Shown: piece by piece, positions 1 to 17,005 of the stretch
Layout: each line of letters begins with the position of its first letter
Numbering within the stretch: position 1 is the stretch's first letter
Assembly: GCA_022402525.1 (NCBI GenBank)
Contig: JAKRSB010000113.1
Span: 1 to 32,000 of the forward strand
Reading direction: 5' to 3'
DNA from: Thermosynechococcaceae cyanobacterium MS004
GTDB lineage: Bacteria; Cyanobacteriota; Cyanobacteriia; Thermosynechococcales; Thermosynechococcaceae
DNA length: 32,000 nucleotides
Program-made: the position numbers and the translations under genes
Notes under the pieces: generated by a model
Told to the model about the DNA's origin: nothing
Seen by the model: only the letters and a program-made list of their open reading frames with translations
Database searches by the model: none

Positions 1-71
1 AGACGAATTCTCAAGGTCTTGTGGACATTATCGCTTAAAAAGCAACAGGTCTTATACACCGCGTCGGATAT

Positions 72-1445
72 ATGGATAGGCGAAATTTCCTGAAAATATT
101 TGGTTTGACACTGGTGGGATCTGTCAATAGTTCCTGTGGCGAAGAATCCCCAAGATATACAGCGACATCCAGCAAGAAGCGCATCGTGGTAATTGGTGCA
201 GGATTGTCCGGCCTTGCTGCTGCCCAAGCATTGCATCGACAAGGACATGAAGTTGTCGTGGTTGAAGCTCGTGAGCGTATCGGTGGTCGAGTTTGGACAA
301 GTTCTAAGTGGACTGATATGCCCCTCGATTTTGGCGCGACATGGATACATGGAACTCAGGGCAATCCGTTAACTGATTTAGCTGAACAAATAAATGCTAA
401 ACGGCTCACAACTAGTTACGACAGGACAGTAACGTACAATACATCGGGACAGCCACTCTCCAAGGCAGAGGAAGTCCGTTTAGAAGATTTCAGGAAGCAA
501 GTGTTTGGGAAGTTGAAAAAGGCTCAGAACAAAGATCCAGATGTCTCGATTCAACAAGCGATCAAACCGTTGATGCGTCAAGTTGACAAATCCTCAGAGT
601 CATACCGTTTCATCAACTTTATTTTGAGTGGTGAGATCGAACAGGAGTATTCGGGAAGCACTGAAAGCCTCTCTGCACAATGGTTTGATAGTGCTCAAGA
701 ATTTGATGGCAATGATGACCTATTCGTTCAAGGATTTAAAGTCATCCCAGAATTTCTAGCCAAAGGGTTACAGATCGAACTGGGTCAGGTCGTGAAAGAA
801 ATTCAATGGCATCAATCGCCTGTTCGGGTGATTACTCAAAAGACCGATTTCCTAGCCGATCGTGTTTTAGTCACTCTACCGCTAGGGGTTTTGCAAGCTG
901 GAAAGGTTCGTTTCACGCCTGAATTACCTCGGAACAAACAGAATGCGATCGCCAAACTGGGCATGGGTGTTCTGAACAAATGCTATCTTCGATTTGCCGA
1001 TGTTTTTTGGGCTGCTAATGTTGATTGGTTAGAGCATATTTCGGCAAGTCATGGTGAGTGGACAGAGTGGGTGAGTTTCAAGCGAGTAGCTAATATGCCC
1101 ATACTGCTAGGATTTAATGCGGCTGATCGGGGAAGAGCGATTGAAGCATGGTCGGACAAACAAATCGTTGCGAGTGCAATGCAAACCTTAAGGACAATCT
1201 ATGGAGTCAGTATTCCTGAACCCATTGACTATCAAATTACCCGTTGGGCAACCGATCCGTTTTCGCTGGGTTCGTATTCATATAATCCTGTTGGTGCAGT
1301 ACCAAAAATGCGTCAAGAACTTGCTGCACCACTCGGAAGGTCTCTATTTTTTGCGGGTGAAGCATCTAATGAGGAGTATTTCGGGACTGCTCATGGTGCA
1401 TATTTATCTGGTCTACGTGCAGCCAAAGAAATCCTGCAAATATAA
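72..1445 (+). CDS. Exported FAD-dependent amine oxidase (flavin monoamine/polyamine oxidase family)
   Basis: 457-aa ORF. Twin-arginine signal MDRRNFLKIFGLTLVG followed by SSCG (possible lipoprotein Cys). Dinucleotide-binding motif VVIGAGLSGLAAA...VVVVEARERIGGR. C-terminal FFAGEA...GTAHGAYLSGLRAA is typical of the amine oxidase fold. Confidence 0.85.
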   Translation: MDRRNFLKIFGLTLVGSVNSSCGEESPRYTATSSKKRIVVIGAGLSGLAAAQALHRQGHEVVVVEARERIGGRVWTSSKWTDMPLDFGATWIHGTQGNPLTDLAEQINAKRLTTSYDRTVTYNTSGQPLSKAEEVRLEDFRKQVFGKLKKAQNKDPDVSIQQAIKPLMRQVDKSSESYRFINFILSGEIEQEYSGSTESLSAQWFDSAQEFDGNDDLFVQGFKVIPEFLAKGLQIELGQVVKEIQWHQSPVRVITQKTDFLADRVLVTLPLGVLQAGKVRFTPELPRNKQNAIAKLGMGVLNKCYLRFADVFWAANVDWLEHISASHGEWTEWVSFKRVANMPILLGFNAADRGRAIEAWSDKQIVASAMQTLRTIYGVSIPEPIDYQITRWATDPFSLGSYSYNPVGAVPKMRQELAAPLGRSLFFAGEASNEEYFGTAHGAYLSGLRAAKEILQI

Positions 1446-1454
1446 TCTAGTGTT

Positions 1455-1542
1455 ACCCAACACCTTTCATGTACGCCGACCGCCGAAAGTTAATCGGCTA
1501 TGATACACAGGTTGTTGGCAGCGGGTGGTAGAAACGTTAGAC
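1455..1542 (+). mobile_element. attC-like imperfect palindrome A (88 bp)
   Basis: Starts 9 nt after the amine oxidase stop. Left end ACCCAAC fits RYYYAAC and right end GTTAGAC fits GTTRRRY. The right arm GCAGCGGGTGG...ACGTTAG is nearly identical to element C. Confidence 0.55.
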
Positions 1543-1940
1543 CTCTGAGATAACTAAGAGGACGCAAGCGGAAAATATTGACAGGAATGAGGCGAAGATA
1601 ATCTTGCGTTTTCGATCTTGACAACCAGAGTTGGCTGTGTTTCGATTTACTCAGGCAGTCGAATATCAATACCTAGATGTTCGTCTCATGGGCATTATCT
1701 CTAGTCCTCAGGTCAATGCATACCCAGTATTTTGGTCTAGCGTTCATTTGAGATGAGGGATTTCATTTCAGGTAAACGCTGGTTCAGCATACTAGATATG
1801 CACTGGTGTGAGGCTTGGAGATAGTGCGCTTGAGACGTTTACCAATAGGTGACAGGCTAGTGGTTTTCCCCGTGGGCGAGAACTTCGATGCTTATCCTGA
1901 TATTCCTTTGCTACAAACCCATGTAGAAAGGAAATTTACT

Positions 1941-2225
1941 ATGAACTCCAAGCAAAGACAAGCAAAGAAGGCTCAACTCATCGGTATCTTTGGTTTGTAC
2001 TGTTGGCATTGTAAGTGTCGCTTCCCTGCCGAGGATCTGACCCTCGACCATCTAGTACCCAAAAGCAAGGGCGGTTCCAATTCTTTAGGGAACTTGTGGT
2101 TAGCTTGTTTCCCGTGCAACAACTCCCGTGGAAACAATTTCTATCCACCCGCACGCTCGTTTGGGCATCTCAGTCAATCTTCAGTCAATGTAGCGAGGAA
2201 AAATGCACAAGCTCTTAATGTTTAA
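1941..2225 (+). CDS. Small stand-alone HNH endonuclease
   Basis: CWHC...LDHLVPKSKGGSNSLGNLWLACFPCNNSRG gives two CxxC knuckles around the H-N-N core. ATG at 1941 is preceded by GAAAGGAAA. The track's TTG start at 1815 adds 42 residues with no recognisable motif. Confidence 0.8.
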   Translation: MNSKQRQAKKAQLIGIFGLYCWHCKCRFPAEDLTLDHLVPKSKGGSNSLGNLWLACFPCNNSRGNNFYPPARSFGHLSQSSVNVARKNAQALNV

Positions 2226-2886
2226 TGATGAGAAACTTCTACGCCGATCTCTAACTCACCGCTCATATGTCAATGAAAATTCTGGGGAAGGTGGAGATAA
2301 CGAGCGCCTAGAGTTTCTTGGTGATGCAATTCTCAATTTCATCAGTGGCGAATACCTTTATCAGGTTCATCCTGAAATGGGAGAAGATGAAATGACAAGA
2401 CGACGAGCAGCACTTGTAGACGAAAAACAACTCGCTAGATTTGCTATTGAAGTTGGATTAGACTTCAGGATGCGACTAGGGCAAGGTGCAATTCGTGAGG
2501 GTGGTTATCAAAATCCAAATCTCCTTAGCAGCACTTTTGAAGCAGTTATTGGGGCTTACTATTTAGATAACAAGCGCGACATTGAAGCACTGCGTCCTTT
2601 AGTAGAACAACTATTTAACTCTGTTCCTGAAGAAGTTATGGTGGTTCGCTCAAATATAGACTCAAAGAATAAGTTTCAGGAACTAGTGCAGGCAAATGGG
2701 GCAAAGACTCCTCCAAAGTATGTCACAGAAAAATTAGGTGGAGCAGATCATGCTCCAGAGTTTTTTTCTAAGGCTTATGTGGATGATAAACTCTATGGTG
2801 AAGGTAAAGGTCGTAGCAAGAAGGATGCAGAAAAACAAGCTGCTGAAGATGCTATAGCCACGCTAAAAAAACGAGGGTTTCTATGA
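2203..2886 (+). CDS. rnc: Ribonuclease III (catalytic domain plus C-terminal dsRBD)
   Basis: LTHRSY...ERLEFLGDAILNF RNase III signature. C-terminal dsRBD (KNKFQELVQ...GEGKGRSKKDAEKQAAEDAI). AGGA lies 4 nt upstream of ATG 2203. The gene overlaps the HNH ORF by 23 nt; an alternative ATG at 2218 gives ATGTTTAA start/stop overlap. Confidence 0.9.
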   Translation: MHKLLMFNDEKLLRRSLTHRSYVNENSGEGGDNERLEFLGDAILNFISGEYLYQVHPEMGEDEMTRRRAALVDEKQLARFAIEVGLDFRMRLGQGAIREGGYQNPNLLSSTFEAVIGAYYLDNKRDIEALRPLVEQLFNSVPEEVMVVRSNIDSKNKFQELVQANGAKTPPKYVTEKLGGADHAPEFFSKAYVDDKLYGEGKGRSKKDAEKQAAEDAIATLKKRGFL

Positions 2887-2896
2887 TGCAGCCGAG

Positions 2897-2983
2897 GGCT
2901 AACAACCGCGCTGCACCGGAACACCTCAAAGCATCAGTTAAGATTCAAAGGTTGTCTGTGTCCGGTGAGGACGACCGTTAGCG
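2897..2983 (+). mobile_element. attC-like imperfect palindrome B (87 bp)
   Basis: Starts 10 nt after the rnc stop. GGCTAAC...GTTAGCG ends pair as GCTAAC/GTTAGC. The inner arm GCACCGGA pairs with TCCGGTG, with a bulged base and an unpaired spacer, as in attC folds. Confidence 0.55.
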
Positions 2984-2998
2984 AGGAAAGCTTTTTCT

Positions 2999-3628
2999 AT
3001 GTTTAACAGACACTCCATTTTGAGCTTTCTTGATAATGCATTTCAGAGCATTGAAATGCCCAATTTTGGCAATGTCAATATTGATTATGTGTCATCACGT
3101 CTATTGGCCTATCGCAGTACAAATAAATGGCTACTGCTATTTAATTCAGTGGTTTGGTGGCCTGCCGCTGAAGGACTTATGGCGATCGTGGAAGCGGTGG
3201 GTACAGGCGTAGTTGGCAGGCAGGGTTTTGATAATGATCGAGCTTTTGTGCCGGGATGCATAGAATTAGATGATGAGGAAAACATTGTCAGTATCCTCGT
3301 TCGAGGAGAAGACATTGATCTCACTGGCTTGGCTATCCAGTCAAACTATGATGTTCAACCGGAATATGGCTTTTGGATATCTGTTGCTCTAGCTGAAAAG
3401 TACAAGGAGAGTTTATTAGCCACACAAACTGAAATTGAGCAATTCATCCCCCCTGACTTTCAGCACTTGCTCACCATTGACGAGTGGGATCATCCAACAT
3501 GGGACATGCCACCGAGTCGGACAGTGGGGTTTCCTCATATTGCGAATGTTTTAGTTGCATCAGATCCGTCACTTTGGATTCCTGTGGAAGCACCTAATAC
3601 GCACTGGTCCCATTGGCATCCAAAATAA
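2999..3628 (+). CDS. Hypothetical protein (209 aa, Trp/His-rich, no motif recognised)
   Basis: Clean ORF that fills the space between attC-like elements B and C. GAGGAAAG lies upstream of the ATG. No domain was recognised by eye. Confidence 0.6.
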   Translation: MFNRHSILSFLDNAFQSIEMPNFGNVNIDYVSSRLLAYRSTNKWLLLFNSVVWWPAAEGLMAIVEAVGTGVVGRQGFDNDRAFVPGCIELDDEENIVSILVRGEDIDLTGLAIQSNYDVQPEYGFWISVALAEKYKESLLATQTEIEQFIPPDFQHLLTIDEWDHPTWDMPPSRTVGFPHIANVLVASDPSLWIPVEAPNTHWSHWHPK

Positions 3629-3637
3629 ATCTGTCAT

Positions 3638-3739
3638 GCCTAACAAGCCGTCTGCACACCGACCTATAAAATCGTTGATTGAAGCCTTGCTGATTGAAGC
3701 CAGCAGCTTTTTAGCAGCGGGTGAGGCATGACGTTACAC
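3638..3739 (+). mobile_element. attC-like imperfect palindrome C (102 bp)
   Basis: Starts 9 nt after the stop at 3626-3628. Left end GCCTAAC fits RYYYAAC. Right end GTTACAC is a near match to GTTRRRY. Left arm TGCACACCGACC resembles element A TGTACGCCGACC, and right arm GCAGCGGGTGAGG resembles A and B. Confidence 0.55.
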
Positions 3740-3766
3740 TACAAAACTAACGATGACAAAATAAAG

Positions 3767-3892
3767 ATGGCAAACACAGACGCCTATGAAGACAAGGTTG
3801 CTGGCGTAGTCGGCGATGCAATGGACAAAGTATGGAAAAGCATTATGAGTAAACTAGCCGCTAGCAATGTCTCAGGTATTGCGTTTCTCTAA
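3767..3892 (+). CDS. Possible 41-aa small ORF (MANTDAYEDKVAGVVGDAMDKVWKSIMSKLAASNVSGIAFL)
   Basis: My own translation; it falls below the ORF-track length cutoff. It lies just after element C and has no following attC-like element. There is no SD and no recognisable family. Confidence 0.2.
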   Translation: MANTDAYEDKVAGVVGDAMDKVWKSIMSKLAASNVSGIAFL

Positions 3893-3986
3893 ATCTGCTT
3901 TCTCGTCCTCACTCAGTTTGATGGGGACTGCGGATAGTCGGGGCATCTTTTGAACCCGTTTAATCTACGACCTCTCAATGGTAAGC

Positions 3987-4577
3987 TCACTTCAGACAAG
4001 CTGTATCAGGAAGATCTATCCCCTCAGCAGCGGACTTTTCATCGGGGGTTGCTGCATTCGACAATTCTTGGATCAACACCAGTAAGGTTTCCGCTACCGA
4101 TTGAGGTTGGGTTGGATTTAGTACAACATACTGATGAGCCGCATCGGTGTCAGCCAAAATCATTTGAATATCTTCAATCTCCCAGGCATCCGGGTGATCA
4201 GCATGAGTAATGCCAATCACCATCGGAATTTGTGTGCGCTGCTGCATAAAAGCTTTGATGCTACGAGCCGCACGCATACTGCCAGGAAGATGGGCAGGAA
4301 CTAGCAGAATATAACCATGGGCACCCTGAATCAGAATATCCCACATAAAGTCAAAGCGAGATTGTCCAGGGGTTCCATAAATTTGTACCCACATTTCATC
4401 CCCTAGGGTGATTCGACCAAAATCCATTGCAACGGTTGTGCCTGATTTCATCTCAGCCGTTTCATCCGTGGGCCTGCGATCAGTATCGACAACCTCTATT
4501 TCGCTGATGGAGCGAATAAACGTTGTTTTTCCTGCACCAACAGGGCCAGTCACAACAATTTTAAGGAGATTTCGCAT
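3987..4577 (-). CDS. Small Ras-superfamily GTPase, CvnD/MglA-like (COG2229-type)
   Basis: P-loop GPVGAGKTT, switch I TTVAMDFG, and G3 YGTPGQSRFDFMWD (GTPGQ instead of DxxGQ, as in CvnD-type proteins). The G4 position reads ITHAD instead of NKxD. Confidence 0.85.
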   Translation of the reverse strand: MRNLLKIVVTGPVGAGKTTFIRSISEIEVVDTDRRPTDETAEMKSGTTVAMDFGRITLGDEMWVQIYGTPGQSRFDFMWDILIQGAHGYILLVPAHLPGSMRAARSIKAFMQQRTQIPMVIGITHADHPDAWEIEDIQMILADTDAAHQYVVLNPTQPQSVAETLLVLIQELSNAATPDEKSAAEGIDLPDTACLK

Positions 4578-11721: not shown

Positions 11722-12777
11722 ATGAATGAACAATTTAACAGCGGGCTAACGGTTTTTTTAAGCCTAATTGTGGAGGCCATTCCCTTTTTGCTGATGGGGG
11801 TATTTGTCTCTAGTGTGCTACTGCTGTTTGTGGATGAGCGCCGCTTGATTGAGCTGATGCCCAAAAATCCGCTGATGGGGGCATTAGCGGGAGGAATCTT
11901 GGGGTTTCTGTTTCCGGTCTGTGAGTGCGGCAATGTACCTGTGGCGCGTCGGTTGCTGGTGCAGGGGGTACCCATTCCTGTGGCCATTAGCTTTTTGCTA
12001 GCGGCACCGACCATTAATCCTGTAGTAATCTGGGCGACCTGGACGGCTTTTCGCGATCAGCCTGAGATTGTGGTGCTGCGGGTGATATTTTCTTTGGTGA
12101 TCGCCATTATTGTGGGCTGTGTTTTTAGCGTACAGTCAGACTTTCGCCCCTTTTTGCAGCCTTCCCTTACTCGATGGATGCCCGATCCGGCTCCGTGCAG
12201 CATCTCGGATACGCCTGCTTTACTCCAGTCCGGTACGTTTTTGCTCGACCAGCCCGGTCAGCCCATTGCGCTGAATGCTTCCTTTGCCGCTGCTGCATTA
12301 AATGCGCCTCAAGGTTCCTTTAGTCCTCCAGGTTTACCTAGACAGAAACGTGGAGCGCTAGCGATTCTGCGCGATCGCCTGCCCCTACTGCTGGAGAATA
12401 TGGTCAAAGAGCTGCGGGAGCTGGGAGGTATTCTAGTCCTCGGTAGCCTGCTTGCTGCAATTATTCAGGTTGCTGTCCCGCGCGAATGGATTTTAAGCAT
12501 TGGTCAAGGCTCCGTCACCTCCGTGCTTGCGATGCTAATCTTGGGCGGCGTCATTTCAATTTGCTCCACCGTGGATGCATTCTTTGCCCTATCCTTTGCC
12601 TCCACCTTTACAAGTGGGGCACTGCTGGCCTTTTTGGTCTTTGGCCCAATGTTTGATCTCAAAAGCCTAGGGCTAATGCTGACCGTCTTTCGGCCGCGTG
12701 CGGTCGTTTATATGGTGGGGCTTATTGTACAGCTCACCCTAATTTTGACGCTGTTTGTGAACCTGCATGTGAGTTAA
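11722..12777 (+). CDS. Predicted permease (COG0701/YraQ-ArsP-like, two-repeat membrane protein)
   Basis: Polytopic membrane protein with FPVCECGNVPVARRLL and a second-half ICSTVDAFFALSF motif, typical of this permease family. Confidence 0.8.
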   Translation: MNEQFNSGLTVFLSLIVEAIPFLLMGVFVSSVLLLFVDERRLIELMPKNPLMGALAGGILGFLFPVCECGNVPVARRLLVQGVPIPVAISFLLAAPTINPVVIWATWTAFRDQPEIVVLRVIFSLVIAIIVGCVFSVQSDFRPFLQPSLTRWMPDPAPCSISDTPALLQSGTFLLDQPGQPIALNASFAAAALNAPQGSFSPPGLPRQKRGALAILRDRLPLLLENMVKELRELGGILVLGSLLAAIIQVAVPREWILSIGQGSVTSVLAMLILGGVISICSTVDAFFALSFASTFTSGALLAFLVFGPMFDLKSLGLMLTVFRPRAVVYMVGLIVQLTLILTLFVNLHVS

Positions 12778-13481
12778 GCTGCCCTTTTTAGGGCTTCAAT
12801 ATCTGCCGACACAATCTTATCCAGGTTGTTTGTAATCTTTTCAATTTCCCAATTCCACCAAGCGATTTCCAGTAAGGATTGGATGACCTTATCCTCAAAA
12901 CGCTGACGGATGCACTGAGCTGGATTGCCGCCAAAAATGCTGTAGGGCGGGACATTGCTCACGACGACTGATTTTGCTGCAATGATTGCCCCATCGCCCA
13001 CCTGAACCCCTGGCATCATGACAGATTCATAACCAATCCACACATCGTTGCCGACGACTGTATTGCCTTTGTAGGGAAGCTTTTCGAGCGGAGGGTCTAC
13101 TTTTTCCCAGCCGTTGCCGAAGATCTGAAAGGGATAGGTTGAAAACCCATCTAGCTGATGATTCGCGCCATTCATAATAAACTTTATGCCTCTTGCTAAA
13201 GCACAAAATTTCCCAATGATGAGCTGATCGCCAACAAATGGAAAGTGATATAAAACGTTGCGCTCAAAGTCTTCCGAGTCTTCTGGATCGTCGTAATAGG
13301 TATAGTCCCCAATGATGATATTAGGATTCGATACGGTATTTTGAATGAAGCAGATTTGCGGGAATCCCTTCATCGGGTGCTTATCTTTTGGATCAGCTCC
13401 GAACACAGTAGCCTCCAGCTTCCATAAATGCTTTATTTCCGCATCATAACGGTGAAAGCCAGCGGCGGCAGATGATTTCAA
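12774..13481 (-). CDS. Vat-family streptogramin A / xenobiotic O-acetyltransferase (hexapeptide repeat)
   Basis: NIIIGDYTYYDD...LIIGKFCALARGIKFIMNGANHQLDGFSTYPFQIFGNGWEK...GNDVWIGYESVMMPGVQVGDGAIIAAKSVVVSNVPPYSIFGGNPAQCIRQRF...WWNW closely parallels Vat(A-H) proteins as I remember them. The N-terminus is uncertain (alternative ATG at 13373). Confidence 0.85.
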   Translation of the reverse strand: MKSSAAAGFHRYDAEIKHLWKLEATVFGADPKDKHPMKGFPQICFIQNTVSNPNIIIGDYTYYDDPEDSEDFERNVLYHFPFVGDQLIIGKFCALARGIKFIMNGANHQLDGFSTYPFQIFGNGWEKVDPPLEKLPYKGNTVVGNDVWIGYESVMMPGVQVGDGAIIAAKSVVVSNVPPYSIFGGNPAQCIRQRFEDKVIQSLLEIAWWNWEIEKITNNLDKIVSADIEALKRAA

Positions 13482-13577
13482 ACTCTCACCGATAACCTGT
13501 GCTTCGTCCGCATCAACGCAGGGTTCAGCAGGGTTCGACGGTTGACGCTACTTTCAGGCAAAACGGTGGGATCAGAA

Positions 13578-13622
13578 TACTTGCTTGTATAGCTTGCAAG
13601 TAGATTTTTTAGACAGTAATAT
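13578..13622 (+). promoter_or_regulatory. Putative sigma70-type promoter (TTGCAA-17-TAATAT) overlapped by inverted repeat TACTTGC-N11-GCAAGTA
   Basis: -35 at 13594-13599 and -10 at 13617-13622, 34 nt upstream of the methyltransferase ATG. The IR arms are at 13578-13584 and 13596-13602. Confidence 0.35.
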
Positions 13623-13655
13623 AGGGTACCTAGTTTTAGTTTCGCTTCCGAAATA

Positions 13656-15086
13656 ATGTCTACCCAATACCTTTCTGTGAAAGAAAGCTCTGAAATTCTC
13701 AACTGTTCAGAGCAGTACGTTCGCCAACTACTCCGGCATGGTGAAATCAGCGGCGAAAGGATTAGCAGCCGCTGGATTGTAGCATCAGAGTCTGTGCATG
13801 AGTACCGTTGTAAGGGAGAGGATGCCAATCTAGGCGTTCCCGATCATGGGCGACGATCCTTCAGTAAACCAGACTTCAAAGCCTTAAGTTTTTTCTCTGG
13901 CTGCATGGGTCTAGACTTGGGACTAGAAAAAGAAGGAATCAAGGTATTGCTTGCCTGCGAGATTGATGCAGCCGCACGAAAAACAATAGAGACGAATCGG
14001 CCGGATATGGCTCTGATTGGTGATATTAGGGACTATTCAGCGATAGAAATTCGAGAAAAAGCAGGGTTGAGTTCGACCGATGAGATTGATGTCATTGTTG
14101 GTGGTCCGCCATGCCAAGCTTTTAGCAGTGCAGGTAAACGTCAAGGATTCAATGATGATCGCGGCAATGTCTTTTTAACATTCATCGATTTAATCACTGA
14201 ACTTAAACCCAGATTTGCCGTAATTGAAAATGTTCGAGGATTACTATCGGCTCCACTGAAGCACAGACCCCATGAAATGAGAGGGAAGAATTTTCCATCC
14301 TTATCTCAGGATGAACAACGAGGAGGGGCACTGCTTTTTATTACCCGAAGACTCAAGCAGGCAGGATATAGTATTTCGTTTAACTTATACAATTCCGCTA
14401 ATTTTGGATCACCTCAACAGCGAGAAAGAGTTGTTATTACTTGTAGCCGTGATGGCGAAAAACTTCCCTATCTTATGCCAACTCATGCTGAGAAAGGTTT
14501 GTATGGGCTTCCACAATGGCGGACATTGAGAGAAGCTCTGGAAGGACTGCCCAAAGACGGACATCATTTTGTCAAGTTTCCTGAGAAGCGACTCAAATAC
14601 TACAAGCTTCTGAAATCTGGGCAATATTGGCGAGATTTGCCAGCAGAGTTACACCAAGAGGCGCTTGGGGCTTCGTATCATGCAGGAGGTGGAAAAACTG
14701 GTTTTTATCGGAGGTTAGCTTGGGATAAACCTTCTCCAACACTGGTCACTCATCCAGCCATGCCCGCAACCGATCTGGCACATCCAGAAGAGGATAGACC
14801 ACTCAGTATTGAAGAGTACAAGCGCATCCAAGAGTTTCCTGATGATTGGGCGATCGCGGGAAGTTTACTGGATCAGTATCGGCAAGTTGGAAATGCTGTG
14901 CCCTGTTCTCTGGGAAGGGCGATCGCTAGGATGTTGTTAACTCATCGTTCGGGGGAAACACCGATCATCTATCCAGACTTTCCCTACTCGCGTTATCACA
15001 AGACAGATGATGTAAGTTGGACGATTGAAACTTTAGGTGATCTTGAAGAATCCTCGGAAACACAGCTTTCTTTGAATTTAGTTTGA
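13656..15086 (+). CDS. DNA (cytosine-5) methyltransferase with N-terminal excisionase/MerR-type HTH
   Basis: HTH YLSVKESSEILNCSEQYVRQLLRHGEISGERISSRWIV. Motif I FFSGCMGLDLG, motif IV GGPPCQAFS, motif VI AVIENVRGL, motif VIII QQRERVVI, motif X QVGNAVP. Confidence 0.92.
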   Translation: MSTQYLSVKESSEILNCSEQYVRQLLRHGEISGERISSRWIVASESVHEYRCKGEDANLGVPDHGRRSFSKPDFKALSFFSGCMGLDLGLEKEGIKVLLACEIDAAARKTIETNRPDMALIGDIRDYSAIEIREKAGLSSTDEIDVIVGGPPCQAFSSAGKRQGFNDDRGNVFLTFIDLITELKPRFAVIENVRGLLSAPLKHRPHEMRGKNFPSLSQDEQRGGALLFITRRLKQAGYSISFNLYNSANFGSPQQRERVVITCSRDGEKLPYLMPTHAEKGLYGLPQWRTLREALEGLPKDGHHFVKFPEKRLKYYKLLKSGQYWRDLPAELHQEALGASYHAGGGKTGFYRRLAWDKPSPTLVTHPAMPATDLAHPEEDRPLSIEEYKRIQEFPDDWAIAGSLLDQYRQVGNAVPCSLGRAIARMLLTHRSGETPIIYPDFPYSRYHKTDDVSWTIETLGDLEESSETQLSLNLV

Positions 15087-15830
15087 CGGCTCAGACAAAA
15101 ATTGCCAAGGATTGTTTACCTCCACCGCTAAAGCATGTGGATTTTCTGTCAAAATCTGCTGAACAAACATGGCAAAGTTTTCTTCGGAAAAACGAGTCGT
15201 TCCATACTTATCATTGAAGTAAGACCATCGATATGATCCTGTCCTAGCATCAACTCTGTACCACTTTTCGATGGGTTGGCTGATTCTAACCCTAGAAGAC
15301 GAGCTATTTTCTGAATTACTGCGGTTTTTCACCTGAAAGAGAGAACCATCAACATTACAAAAATCGACATGGCGAACGGACTCGCCCCAGCAGCAATACC
15401 AGCCATATTCATCTAACTGTTCAGCCAGAAATTCTTCGAGGAGTAATCCCTGAATATTTTCGGCTGACATGGACAGCCTGTGAGCATACTGGATCTGCTC
15501 AAGATGATCTGATGTTAACCGTGTCAATCTGGCATTGATGATTGTATTAACAATTGGATCAGCAACTGTTTTTGGTGGTTGCGAGATTCGTCTTGAAATT
15601 CTGTTCTCATAGCTATCACTGTACTTTTTCAGCCAAGACTGAGCTAAGTCTTCCAGCGTAGTGCCTTTCAGGGCTGGAGAAAGCCCTGGATTTCTGTAAC
15701 AGGCAGTTAAAATCGTGCGATGAGCTTCTAGGAATGGCTGGCCATGCTGGGAAAAAGCATTTTGAAAGATTTGTAAAAATAGTTCTTCAGAACTAGATGT
15801 ACTAATGATTTCATCAAATGTAACAGACAT
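15078..15830 (-). CDS. Putative type II restriction endonuclease (PD-(D/E)xK-like), cognate to the adjacent methyltransferase
   Basis: 250 aa, convergent with the MTase and overlapping it by 9 nt. Candidate catalytic pattern LLEEFLAE...HVDFCNVDGSLFQVKNRS (E...D-x10-QxK). The family assignment was not verified. Confidence 0.5.
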   Translation of the reverse strand: MSVTFDEIISTSSSEELFLQIFQNAFSQHGQPFLEAHRTILTACYRNPGLSPALKGTTLEDLAQSWLKKYSDSYENRISRRISQPPKTVADPIVNTIINARLTRLTSDHLEQIQYAHRLSMSAENIQGLLLEEFLAEQLDEYGWYCCWGESVRHVDFCNVDGSLFQVKNRSNSENSSSSRVRISQPIEKWYRVDARTGSYRWSYFNDKYGTTRFSEENFAMFVQQILTENPHALAVEVNNPWQFLSEPSN

Positions 15831-15887
15831 AAAAATTTTCTTTATTCAGGCAAGAAAATTACGAATCAGAAATGCTCAGATTGTATG

Positions 15888-16055
15888 TCATAATGCTCGT
15901 TCTGCACATTGATTCAGATAGAAAAAATCTTGCAAATGACAGATTAAGCTCTCAACTACTTGACTAACGGCTTGGGCGTCAGTGGTGGCAAGTGCTTTCG
16001 AGTCATTGCCAGAGCGTTGAAGCCATCCGCTGCGCGCACTGGCTAGATATTTCAT
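15888..16055 (-). CDS. Possible 55-aa small ORF / GC-rich gene remnant
   Basis: My own translation: MKYLASARSGWLQRSGNDSKALATTDAQAVSQVVESLICHLQDFFYLNQCAERAL. About 90 bp of it is visibly GC-richer than the surrounding AT-rich island. It lies between the AAA+ and endonuclease genes on the same strand. Confidence 0.2.
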   Translation of the reverse strand: MKYLASARSGWLQRSGNDSKALATTDAQAVSQVVESLICHLQDFFYLNQCAERAL

Positions 16056-16081: not shown

Positions 16082-17005
16082 TTATTCGGGAATGTCTTCA
16101 GGAGCAATTGTAATTAGCATTTCTTTGCTAACTTTAGAGAGTTTAGACAACCTGTTTGCCTGTTTCTCAACAGTTTTGTCAAAAATATTTCTAACTAGCC
16201 TACCATTCCCAAATCTGCTATCTCGATTTTCGTACAAAAGCGTCATTTTTTTGAGTAAGACATCTCTAGATTGCTCAGCCAAACTCAAATAACTTTGCTC
16301 ACAAATTTTATCAAAAATCATCAATAATTCATCAGGATTATAGTCTTGAAAATTAAAGTATCGATTAAAACGTGATTGCAAACCAGGGTTGGCATTGATG
16401 AAACGTGACATTTCTTCAGTATAGCCAGCAACGATGACCACTAACTTGTCTTTGTAGTCTTCCATTCTTTTAAGCAAAGTATCAATTGCTTCCTGTCCGA
16501 AATCTTTGGAAGCAGAAGTTTCGGATGCCAATGTGTAAGCTTCATCAATAAACAGGACACCATCTAAAGCTGACTCAACTACCTTATCTACCTTAATTGC
16601 TGTTTGACCAATGTAGCCTGCAACCAAGCCTGACCGATCTGTTTCAACAACATGTCCTTTTGAAAGTACACCCAACTGTTTGTATATTTCACCCATTAAA
16701 CGAGCAATTGTCGTCTTACCCGTACCAGGTGGCCCACAGAAAACGGAGTGCAAAGTAACAGAAACACTTGGCAAATTCTCTAATTCTCTCATTTTCTGAA
16801 TCTTCAAAAAGTTAATGAGAGTGTGAATGTCATCCTTCACATCCTGCATTCCTACTAAGTGGCTGAGCTTATCGGAAATATCGGCTAAATCATTAGATGA
16901 GCTATCAAGGCTACCTGGCATTTTGCTTCCAGAGCGCTTTAGCTCATCTTTCATTCGTTGTAATTCAGCTTCAATTCTATAGCTATGCCAGGAGTTATTT
17001 AGCAT
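16082..17005 (-). CDS. AAA+ ATPase, SpoVK/CbbX/EccA-type, with short N-terminal coiled coil
   Basis: LVGMQDVKDDI...LHSVFCGPPGTGKTTIARLMGEIYKQLGVL (Walker A), GVLFIDEAYTL (Walker B), VIVAGY...NPGLQSRFNRYFNFQDY (sensor / Arg finger region). Confidence 0.9.
   Translation of the reverse strand: MLNNSWHSYRIEAELQRMKDELKRSGSKMPGSLDSSSNDLADISDKLSHLVGMQDVKDDIHTLINFLKIQKMRELENLPSVSVTLHSVFCGPPGTGKTTIARLMGEIYKQLGVLSKGHVVETDRSGLVAGYIGQTAIKVDKVVESALDGVLFIDEAYTLASETSASKDFGQEAIDTLLKRMEDYKDKLVVIVAGYTEEMSRFINANPGLQSRFNRYFNFQDYNPDELLMIFDKICEQSYLSLAEQSRDVLLKKMTLLYENRDSRFGNGRLVRNIFDKTVEKQANRLSKLSKVSKEMLITIAPEDIPE

Follow-up and report, generated by a model that had tools for sequence, protein, structure and literature searches.

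Do the imperfect palindromes at the left end of a 32-kb stretch of DNA from Thermosynechococcaceae cyanobacterium MS004 (the window) mark the ends of integron gene cassettes, or are they hairpins of another kind? Three such palindromes, here named A, B and C, are located in the first 3,739 positions, each behind a gene on the plus strand. The attC recombination sites of integrons are imperfect palindromes of 57-141 bp that consist of a paired R box, an unpaired spacer, an L box with extrahelical L'' bases and a variable loop. Their outer boxes are R'' (RYYYAAC) and R' (GTTRRRY), in which AAC and GTT are invariant. We conclude with high confidence that positions 1-3739 (plus strand) are an array of three integron gene cassettes, each closed by an attC site (Table 1). 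Both integrons and attC clusters without an integrase have previously been described in Cyanobacteria (PMC4889954, PMC8352920, PMC8618304), so the locus contributes an example rather than a concept. The window carries the cyanobacterial signature HIP1 (GCGATCGC) in 37 copies, compared to about 0.5 expected from base composition.

Identity of the three palindromes

The coordinates and outer boxes reported for A, B and C in the original prediction, which was made from the letters of the window without database searches, were matched exactly when positions 1-4500 were re-read. The gaps between stop codon and palindrome are indeed 9, 10 and 9 nt (the stops end at 1445, 2886 and 3628), and the arm strings said to be shared do occur: A and C both contain GCAGCGGGTG, and B and C both contain GGTGAGG. 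The invariant AAC and GTT occur in 3/3 sites. Site A fits both consensus boxes exactly; the boxes of B and C are off consensus at one or two degenerate positions, and such deviations fall within the range of the 80 seed sites of the model described below. A strict scan of the whole window for RYYYAAC(N)GTTRRRY returned A, one 41-nt pair and nothing more. The orientation is canonical: each attC lies behind a co-oriented open reading frame (ORF), and in the top strand it is the 5' arm that carries the unpaired bases.

Two references were used to score the sites. R1 is a covariance model of 80 attC sites, none of which is from this window. Seventy are metagenomic, taken from contigs that have the consensus L'' motif and up to 17 co-oriented sites each (some with IntI homologues: L046, L106, L020), and ten are class 1 attC sites from plasmid integrons located via IntI1. 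In the alignment of the 80 sequences, 90% of the pair cells are paired, versus 27-39% when the partners are slid, and 14 pairs are changed on both sides. The R1 search of the window was run with filters off, over 64 kb of strand. The second reference is the profile hidden Markov model part of the Cyanobacteria attC model, transcribed from the supplement of the publication (PMC8352920) and run with nhmmer. The covariance model of Ghaly et al. (2021) comprises 51 sites and has a taxon cutoff of 61 bits for the full model (PMC8352920). Our comparison with this family is one of sequence profile only.

Site B was identified by both references, with 41.2 bits (E=3.3e-8, full length) for R1 and 29.2 bits (E=3e-8, nearly full length) for the published cyanobacterial profile. 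With R1, C scored 11.3 bits (E=0.84 window-wide, 0.11 within 1-4200) and A scored 10.4 bits (E=1.4 window-wide, 0.19 within 1-4200), both over their full length; the published profile gave 7.3 bits for A (E=0.22) and 2.8 bits for C (E=5.6). The expectation that attC models would recognize the palindromes was therefore borne out for B, with two independent models, but not for A and C taken alone. The end points of the R1 matches to A, B and C are exactly those originally predicted. One clearly spurious in-gene match of comparable score (850-887) was returned from the 64 kb of strand. Two noise-level matches about 10 nt after co-oriented stops, and beside a 41-bit attC, are very unlikely to have arisen by chance. 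A home-made heuristic based on a stem plus the boxes gave 8 matches, versus 0-5 in shuffled sequences; it missed A and C and was dropped. No Rfam family covers A, B, C or a hairpin at 1682-1837 that is considered below.

In B, the L'' arm is GCT[G]CACCGG[A] (bracketed bases unpaired) and the L' arm is CCGGTGAGG, and the bottom strand folds as the expected bulged hairpin. The predicted fold was recovered in the R1 alignments, where both helices (R and L) and the two unpaired bases (G and A) could be placed in A, B and C, but not in the energies of A and B, which are like those of shuffled DNA (z about 0 to -0.5). For C, z = -3.9 on both strands. Site A has about six non-canonical (broken) pairs, and C has an extra bulge and a 15-nt tandem duplication in its loop, where TGATTGAAGCC occurs at 3676-3686 and again at 3691-3701. 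The duplication would be recent, because the orthologous attC of another array (L157) has a single TGATTGAAGCC copy. Judged by its sequence, B looks fully competent; A and C look partly decayed and probably recombine poorly.

An attC travels together with its cassette, and A and C have counterparts behind homologous genes in other arrays. In L158, the site behind a 97%-identical amine oxidase shares 82% identity with A. Site A is also homologous to L159 1747-1835 (R1 18.9 bits, E=0.005), and it can be aligned with the sites that follow the amine-oxidase homologues of L158, L159 and L160. It also aligns with the upstream attC sites of L159 and L160 (29.5 and 21.9 bits). Site C is homologous end to end, from R'' to R', with L157 3106-3193, an attC of 29 bits (E=3e-5) that begins 8 nt past the stop of a DUF7003 gene. 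The two are 70% identical, including the indel, with shuffled sequences reaching at most 56%. Across the orthologues of A and C elsewhere, R1 gives E=1e-5 to 5e-3. Eight sites of the A/C type have a common fold with three bulged L'' bases; 85.6% of their pair cells are paired, versus 29-48% when slid, and seven pairs are changed on both sides. As these are eight related sequences, the pairing statistics are supportive and not proof. Because A and C are homologous over their full length to better-scoring attC sites behind the same genes elsewhere, we accept them as attC sites. All three palindromes are thus what they had been proposed to be, B by two models and A and C by orthology to the attC sites of other arrays. 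Diverged attC sites that are missed by general models can be recovered in this way, through orthology to an attC that travels with the same gene. We also considered A as a composite of an inner attC (with R' GTTGGCA at 1512-1518) and a remnant; the full-length orthologues in L158-L160 favour a single site.

Cassette boundaries and alternative readings

The bottom strand of an attC folds to a hairpin that is bound by IntI, a tyrosine recombinase, which cuts opposite the junction between the G and the TT of R'. A cassette is excised as a circle when two attC sites recombine, and one is inserted when an attC recombines with attI or with a genomic GWT site. Variation among relatives at the level of whole cassettes, with breakpoints at the GTT of R', had been suggested as a check, and it was found for the DUF7003 and amine-oxidase units. 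DUF7003 homologues with 78-89% identity occur in at least six different neighbourhoods. In six independent contexts GTTA is located exactly 22 nt before the ATG, and homology starts there: mean pairwise identity is 0.70 to the right of the GTT and 0.30 to the left, where we found three different attC sites or plain chromosomal DNA. Past the R' boxes of A and C, the orthologous loci are 44-48% similar to the window, the level of shuffled sequence. Breakpoints at GTT are the pattern expected of crossover between the G and the TT.

In L157, an 84%-identical DUF7003 gene is flanked by attC sites of 37.8 and 29 bits, within a four-site array of small co-oriented ORFs. Like this gene, the amine oxidase of L159 and L160 has attC sites on both sides and neighbours that differ from those in the window. 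A 34.9-bit attC is directly upstream of the amine oxidase in a Chamaesiphon metagenome-assembled genome (MAG; L002). Other DUF7003 copies (L140, L148 and L150) have a bare GTTAG on the left. Off-target insertion at genomic attG/GWT sites has been described (bioRxiv 10.1101/2022.09.11.507474), and the bare-GTTAG copies would be consistent with such insertion. In L160 we also identified a gene for an ApeA-like HEPN protein (1406-2884; Pfam ApeA_NTD1 and HEPN_Apea), followed after 13 nt by an attC (2898-2983, 23 bits). Here a defence-type gene occupies a cassette position.

The co-oriented genes named in the original prediction, for an amine oxidase, an HNH protein and RNase III, were recognized with Pfam, and the product of the third cassette, listed there as a 209-aa unknown, is a DUF7003 protein. 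The amine oxidase has a signal-like start, MDRRNFLK, and homology with its relatives is limited to about 68 to 1460-1482. Cassette 2 has Pfam matches to HNH_5/HNH, Ribonucleas_3_3 and dsrm, and its RNase III (227 aa) scores 214.8 with NCBIfam TIGR02191 (cutoff 166). Three proteins of the MS004 MAG encoded on a 141,360-bp contig, MCG9892460, MCG9892461 and MCG9892462, are identical to the amine oxidase, RNase III and DUF7003 protein, respectively. The first two of these accessions are consecutive, and the HNH ORF apparently has no protein annotation there, despite its clear Pfam HNH_5 match.

Several observations weigh against an array of three cassettes. A and C are not significant alone, either with the general model (E about 1; 0.1-0.2 locally) or with the published profile, and folding energies are non-discriminating, A and B folding no better than shuffled DNA. 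The leader of the amine oxidase (1-50) is not homologous to the L159-type leader or to L158, and the left boundary of cassette 1, which may lie outside the window, is undefined. The HNH/RNase III unit is the least certain of the cassettes, assigned by its position only, between the R' boxes of A and B; the RNase III may be no part of a mobile cassette but a conserved resident gene, with cassettes gathered around it. Furthermore, no IntI or attI was found in the 32-kb window, with the DNA to the left of position 1 lying outside it.

The low scores of A and C with R1, equalled by the spurious match at 850-887, together with the folding of A and a terminator-like stem with a T-run inside C (3687-3706), would suit a reading in which only B is a true attC (a lone cassette or SALIN). 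A and C would then be unrelated hairpins, either terminators or chance palindromes, and there would be no array. We consider this improbable, given that A and C are matched over their full length with the exact predicted ends, on the correct strand and 9 nt past a stop. Both are orthologous to attC sites of up to 29 bits behind the same genes in other arrays, similarity to these orthologues stops at R', and the arms carry compensatory changes. Even harder to credit is that all of the palindromes are generic cyanobacterial repeats (repetitive extragenic palindromes, miniature inverted-repeat transposable elements (MITEs) or HIP-associated hairpins) or terminators, unrelated to integrons. Cyanobacterial genomes are rich in short repeats, as the HIP1 count in the window illustrates, and there is a long MITE-like palindrome at 1682-1837. 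However, A, B, C and two further sites (D and E, below) match attC-specific models from IntI-bearing arrays and class 1 integrons. These five are the only such sites in 32 kb and all are intergenic, four behind the 3' ends of co-oriented genes and the fifth (D) behind a restriction-modification (R-M) pair. No terminator T-run is present behind A or B, and the attC moves with its gene between genomes, with the breakpoint at GTT. For annotation, the value of an array of three cassettes is that it identifies the amine oxidase, HNH/RNase III and DUF7003 genes of MS004 as accessory and horizontally exchangeable. The DUF7003 family gains a genomic context as a recurrent cyanobacterial integron cassette.

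Table 1. Positions of cassettes, attC sites and associated genes in the window.
Feature	Positions	Strand	Details
Cassette 1	1..1536	+	Flavin amine oxidase ORF 72-1445; Pfam PF01593; right end between G1536 and T1537
attC A	1455..1542	+	88 bp; R'' ACCCAAC, R' GTTAGAC; degenerate
Cassette 2	1537..2977	+	HNH endonuclease 1941-2225 overlapping RNase III 2203-2886; 400-nt leader; ends between G2977 and T2978
Imperfect hairpin, about 75 bp	1682..1837	+	Inverted repeat in leader 1543-1940, before HNH and RNase III
attC B	2897..2983	+	87 bp; R'' GGCTAAC, R' GTTAGCG; well formed
Cassette 3	2978..3733	+	DUF7003 ORF 2999-3628; Pfam PF22535; ends between G3733 and T3734
attC C	3638..3739	+	102 bp; R'' GCCTAAC, R' GTTACAC
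Vat-family streptogramin A O-acetyltransferase gene	12774-13424	-	NCBIfam NF000311 328.8 bits, cutoff 300
attC D	13444..13530	-	Published cyanobacterial profile 24 bits, E=1.3e-6 (match 13446-13525); R1 8.9 bits
C5 methyltransferase	13656-15086	+	Pfam; between E and D
SinI-like restriction enzyme	15078-15830	-	Pfam; between E and D
attC E	15962..16048	-	R1 24.4 bits, E=4.8e-4, full length; 33 nt past AAA ATPase stop
AAA ATPase gene	16082-17005	-	Upstream of attC E

Cassette 2 and its leader hairpin

Homologues of the RNase III with 81-95% identity were found in many cyanobacterial genera, including Leptolyngbya, Calothrix, Scytonema, Richelia and Myxacorys. For taxa as distant as these, such identity is unusually high, and it points to strong conservation or else to horizontal spread. 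A tblastn search with the RNase III against plasmids returned only a 39%-identical Bacillus match.

The inverted repeat in the leader of cassette 2 folds as RNA with -83.3 kcal/mol on the plus strand and -70.9 on the minus strand (z about -9.3 for both), with G-U pairs favouring the sense strand. No second copy was found among the sequences fetched. The hairpin may serve to regulate the operon as a substrate of RNase III, or it may be a MITE-like insertion. The rnc leader of E. coli is a precedent for an RNase III substrate that autoregulates its operon. It is conceivable, though doubtful, that cassette 2 is a mobile RNA-processing or defence module in which an HNH nuclease, a full-length RNase III and a strand-biased autoregulatory hairpin would be combined and would have been spread among cyanobacteria by integrons. 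If so, this spread could account for the >80% RNase III identity across distant cyanobacterial genera.

Integrase, second cluster and known systems

The statement in the original prediction that there is no integrase in the window held up: tblastn with IntI1 and with a cyanobacterial-context IntI gave no match in the 32 kb. A complete integron, in which a TIGR02249-type IntI adjoins attI and the first cassette, was not found within the window. An attC cluster that lacks an integrase (CALIN) is defined as at least two attC sites within 4 kb on one strand, with no intI nearby (Cury et al., 2016; PMC4889954). Sites A-C are three co-oriented attC sites within 2.3 kb, and the cluster at 1-3739 may be a CALIN, or it may be where a chromosomal integron has its distal end.

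We identified a second cluster, of attC sites E and D, on the minus strand (13444-16048; Table 1). Between E and D are genes for a SinI-like restriction enzyme and a C5 methyltransferase. The latter, a 476-aa gene divergent from attC D, had been considered as a candidate integrase before it was identified as a C5 DNA methyltransferase gene. No IntI was detected within 16 kb on the side where one would be expected, and the cluster qualifies as a CALIN within the window, carrying an R-M cassette. A Vat-family gene begins 19 nt after attC D. It has no attC itself and is convergent with a gene for an ArsP-type permease. Going by sequence similarity and location, an environmental cyanobacterium here has a resistance-type gene in cassette position. 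Chromosomal cassettes are viewed as reservoirs of defence and resistance functions, and both the R-M cassette and the attC-adjacent Vat gene are in keeping with this.

For the cluster at 1-3739, a complete sedentary chromosomal integron would have intI and attI just to the left of position 1, and the array would be its distal end and not a CALIN. The cassettes are oriented away from the left edge, as expected with intI on the left, and there is an assembly break at position 26, which is typical of repeated attC arrays. In addition, the source contig is 141 kb long, so upstream sequence may exist. We nevertheless regard this as possible but unlikely. The oppositely oriented second cluster is only 10 kb away and has no IntI on its expected side, which shows that the MS004 genome does hold integrase-less clusters. 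Relatives (L002, L140) have the same cassettes singly or paired between core genes without IntI, and A and C look decayed. Whether or not the cluster is a CALIN, the cassettes in the window would be movable only by an IntI supplied in trans. We infer that recombination is still ongoing in this organism, and we likewise infer the mode of cassette expression.

In an independent Logan assembly, the same organism is represented by a 26,788-bp contig (SRR15669396) that starts at window position 26, i.e., at the left edge of the array. This contig is the only one found with the exact amine oxidase. The first 34 bases of the window have no exact match in the metagenome collection.

An integron integrase was identified in another lineage (L150; 3571-4536, minus strand, 321 aa; TIGR02249 479 bits versus a cutoff of 265). 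It is 53% identical to IntI1 and is convergent with a DUF7003 homologue about 220 nt away. The attC of this homologue is truncated just after R''. Thus, given the truncated site and the convergent orientation, the DUF7003 gene sits behind the integrase and not in its array. Partial copies of the L150 integrase gene are present in L151-L153.

Among known systems, the cyanobacterial attC family (PMC8352920) has the consensus GcCUAAC-AAgUC-GcU[G]cAGCGG[A]C...GCCGCUgAgC-UuaGuC-GUUAGgC. Site B shares with this family its two arms, the two unpaired bases and the loop motif AAGGTTxTCTG, and D matches as well. A and C are unlike it, as they have a third bulged L'' base and the arms CAC[A]CCG / CGGGTG instead of CAGCGG / CCGCTG. 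The cluster at 1-3739 resembles a CALIN (Cury et al., 2016; PMC4889954) in having at least two co-oriented attC sites within 4 kb, no intI in the available sequence and a small array (3 cassettes). However, the absence of intI is established, within the window, only for the cluster at 13444-16048, as the left side of 1-3739 is outside the window. The occurrence of the same cassettes elsewhere between core genes, beside a bare GTTAG, is like SALIN/attG insertion (Loot et al., bioRxiv 10.1101/2022.09.11.507474).

Related lineage-specific attC sites between mostly uncharacterized or defence-type cassettes (here the R-M pair between E and D) are also features of the sedentary chromosomal integrons of Vibrio and Xanthomonas. 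Unlike those integrons, which have tens to hundreds of sites, the window has 3 (+2), the attC sites are heterogeneous within the array (B versus the A/C type), and no integrase was seen. The sites have the same architecture as class 1 attC sites (estX, cmlA1, aadA). In estX the L arms, GCTGCACCGGAA...TTCCGGTGAGC, are almost the same as in B, and cmlA1 agrees with the same consensus. The locus is unlike class 1 integrons in its chromosomal cyanobacterial setting, in the lack of a Tn402/IntI1 context and in the lack of antibiotic-resistance cassettes in 1-3739. The first unpaired base of the top strand is G here (C on the bottom strand), whereas in aadA-type sites it is C (G on the bottom strand).

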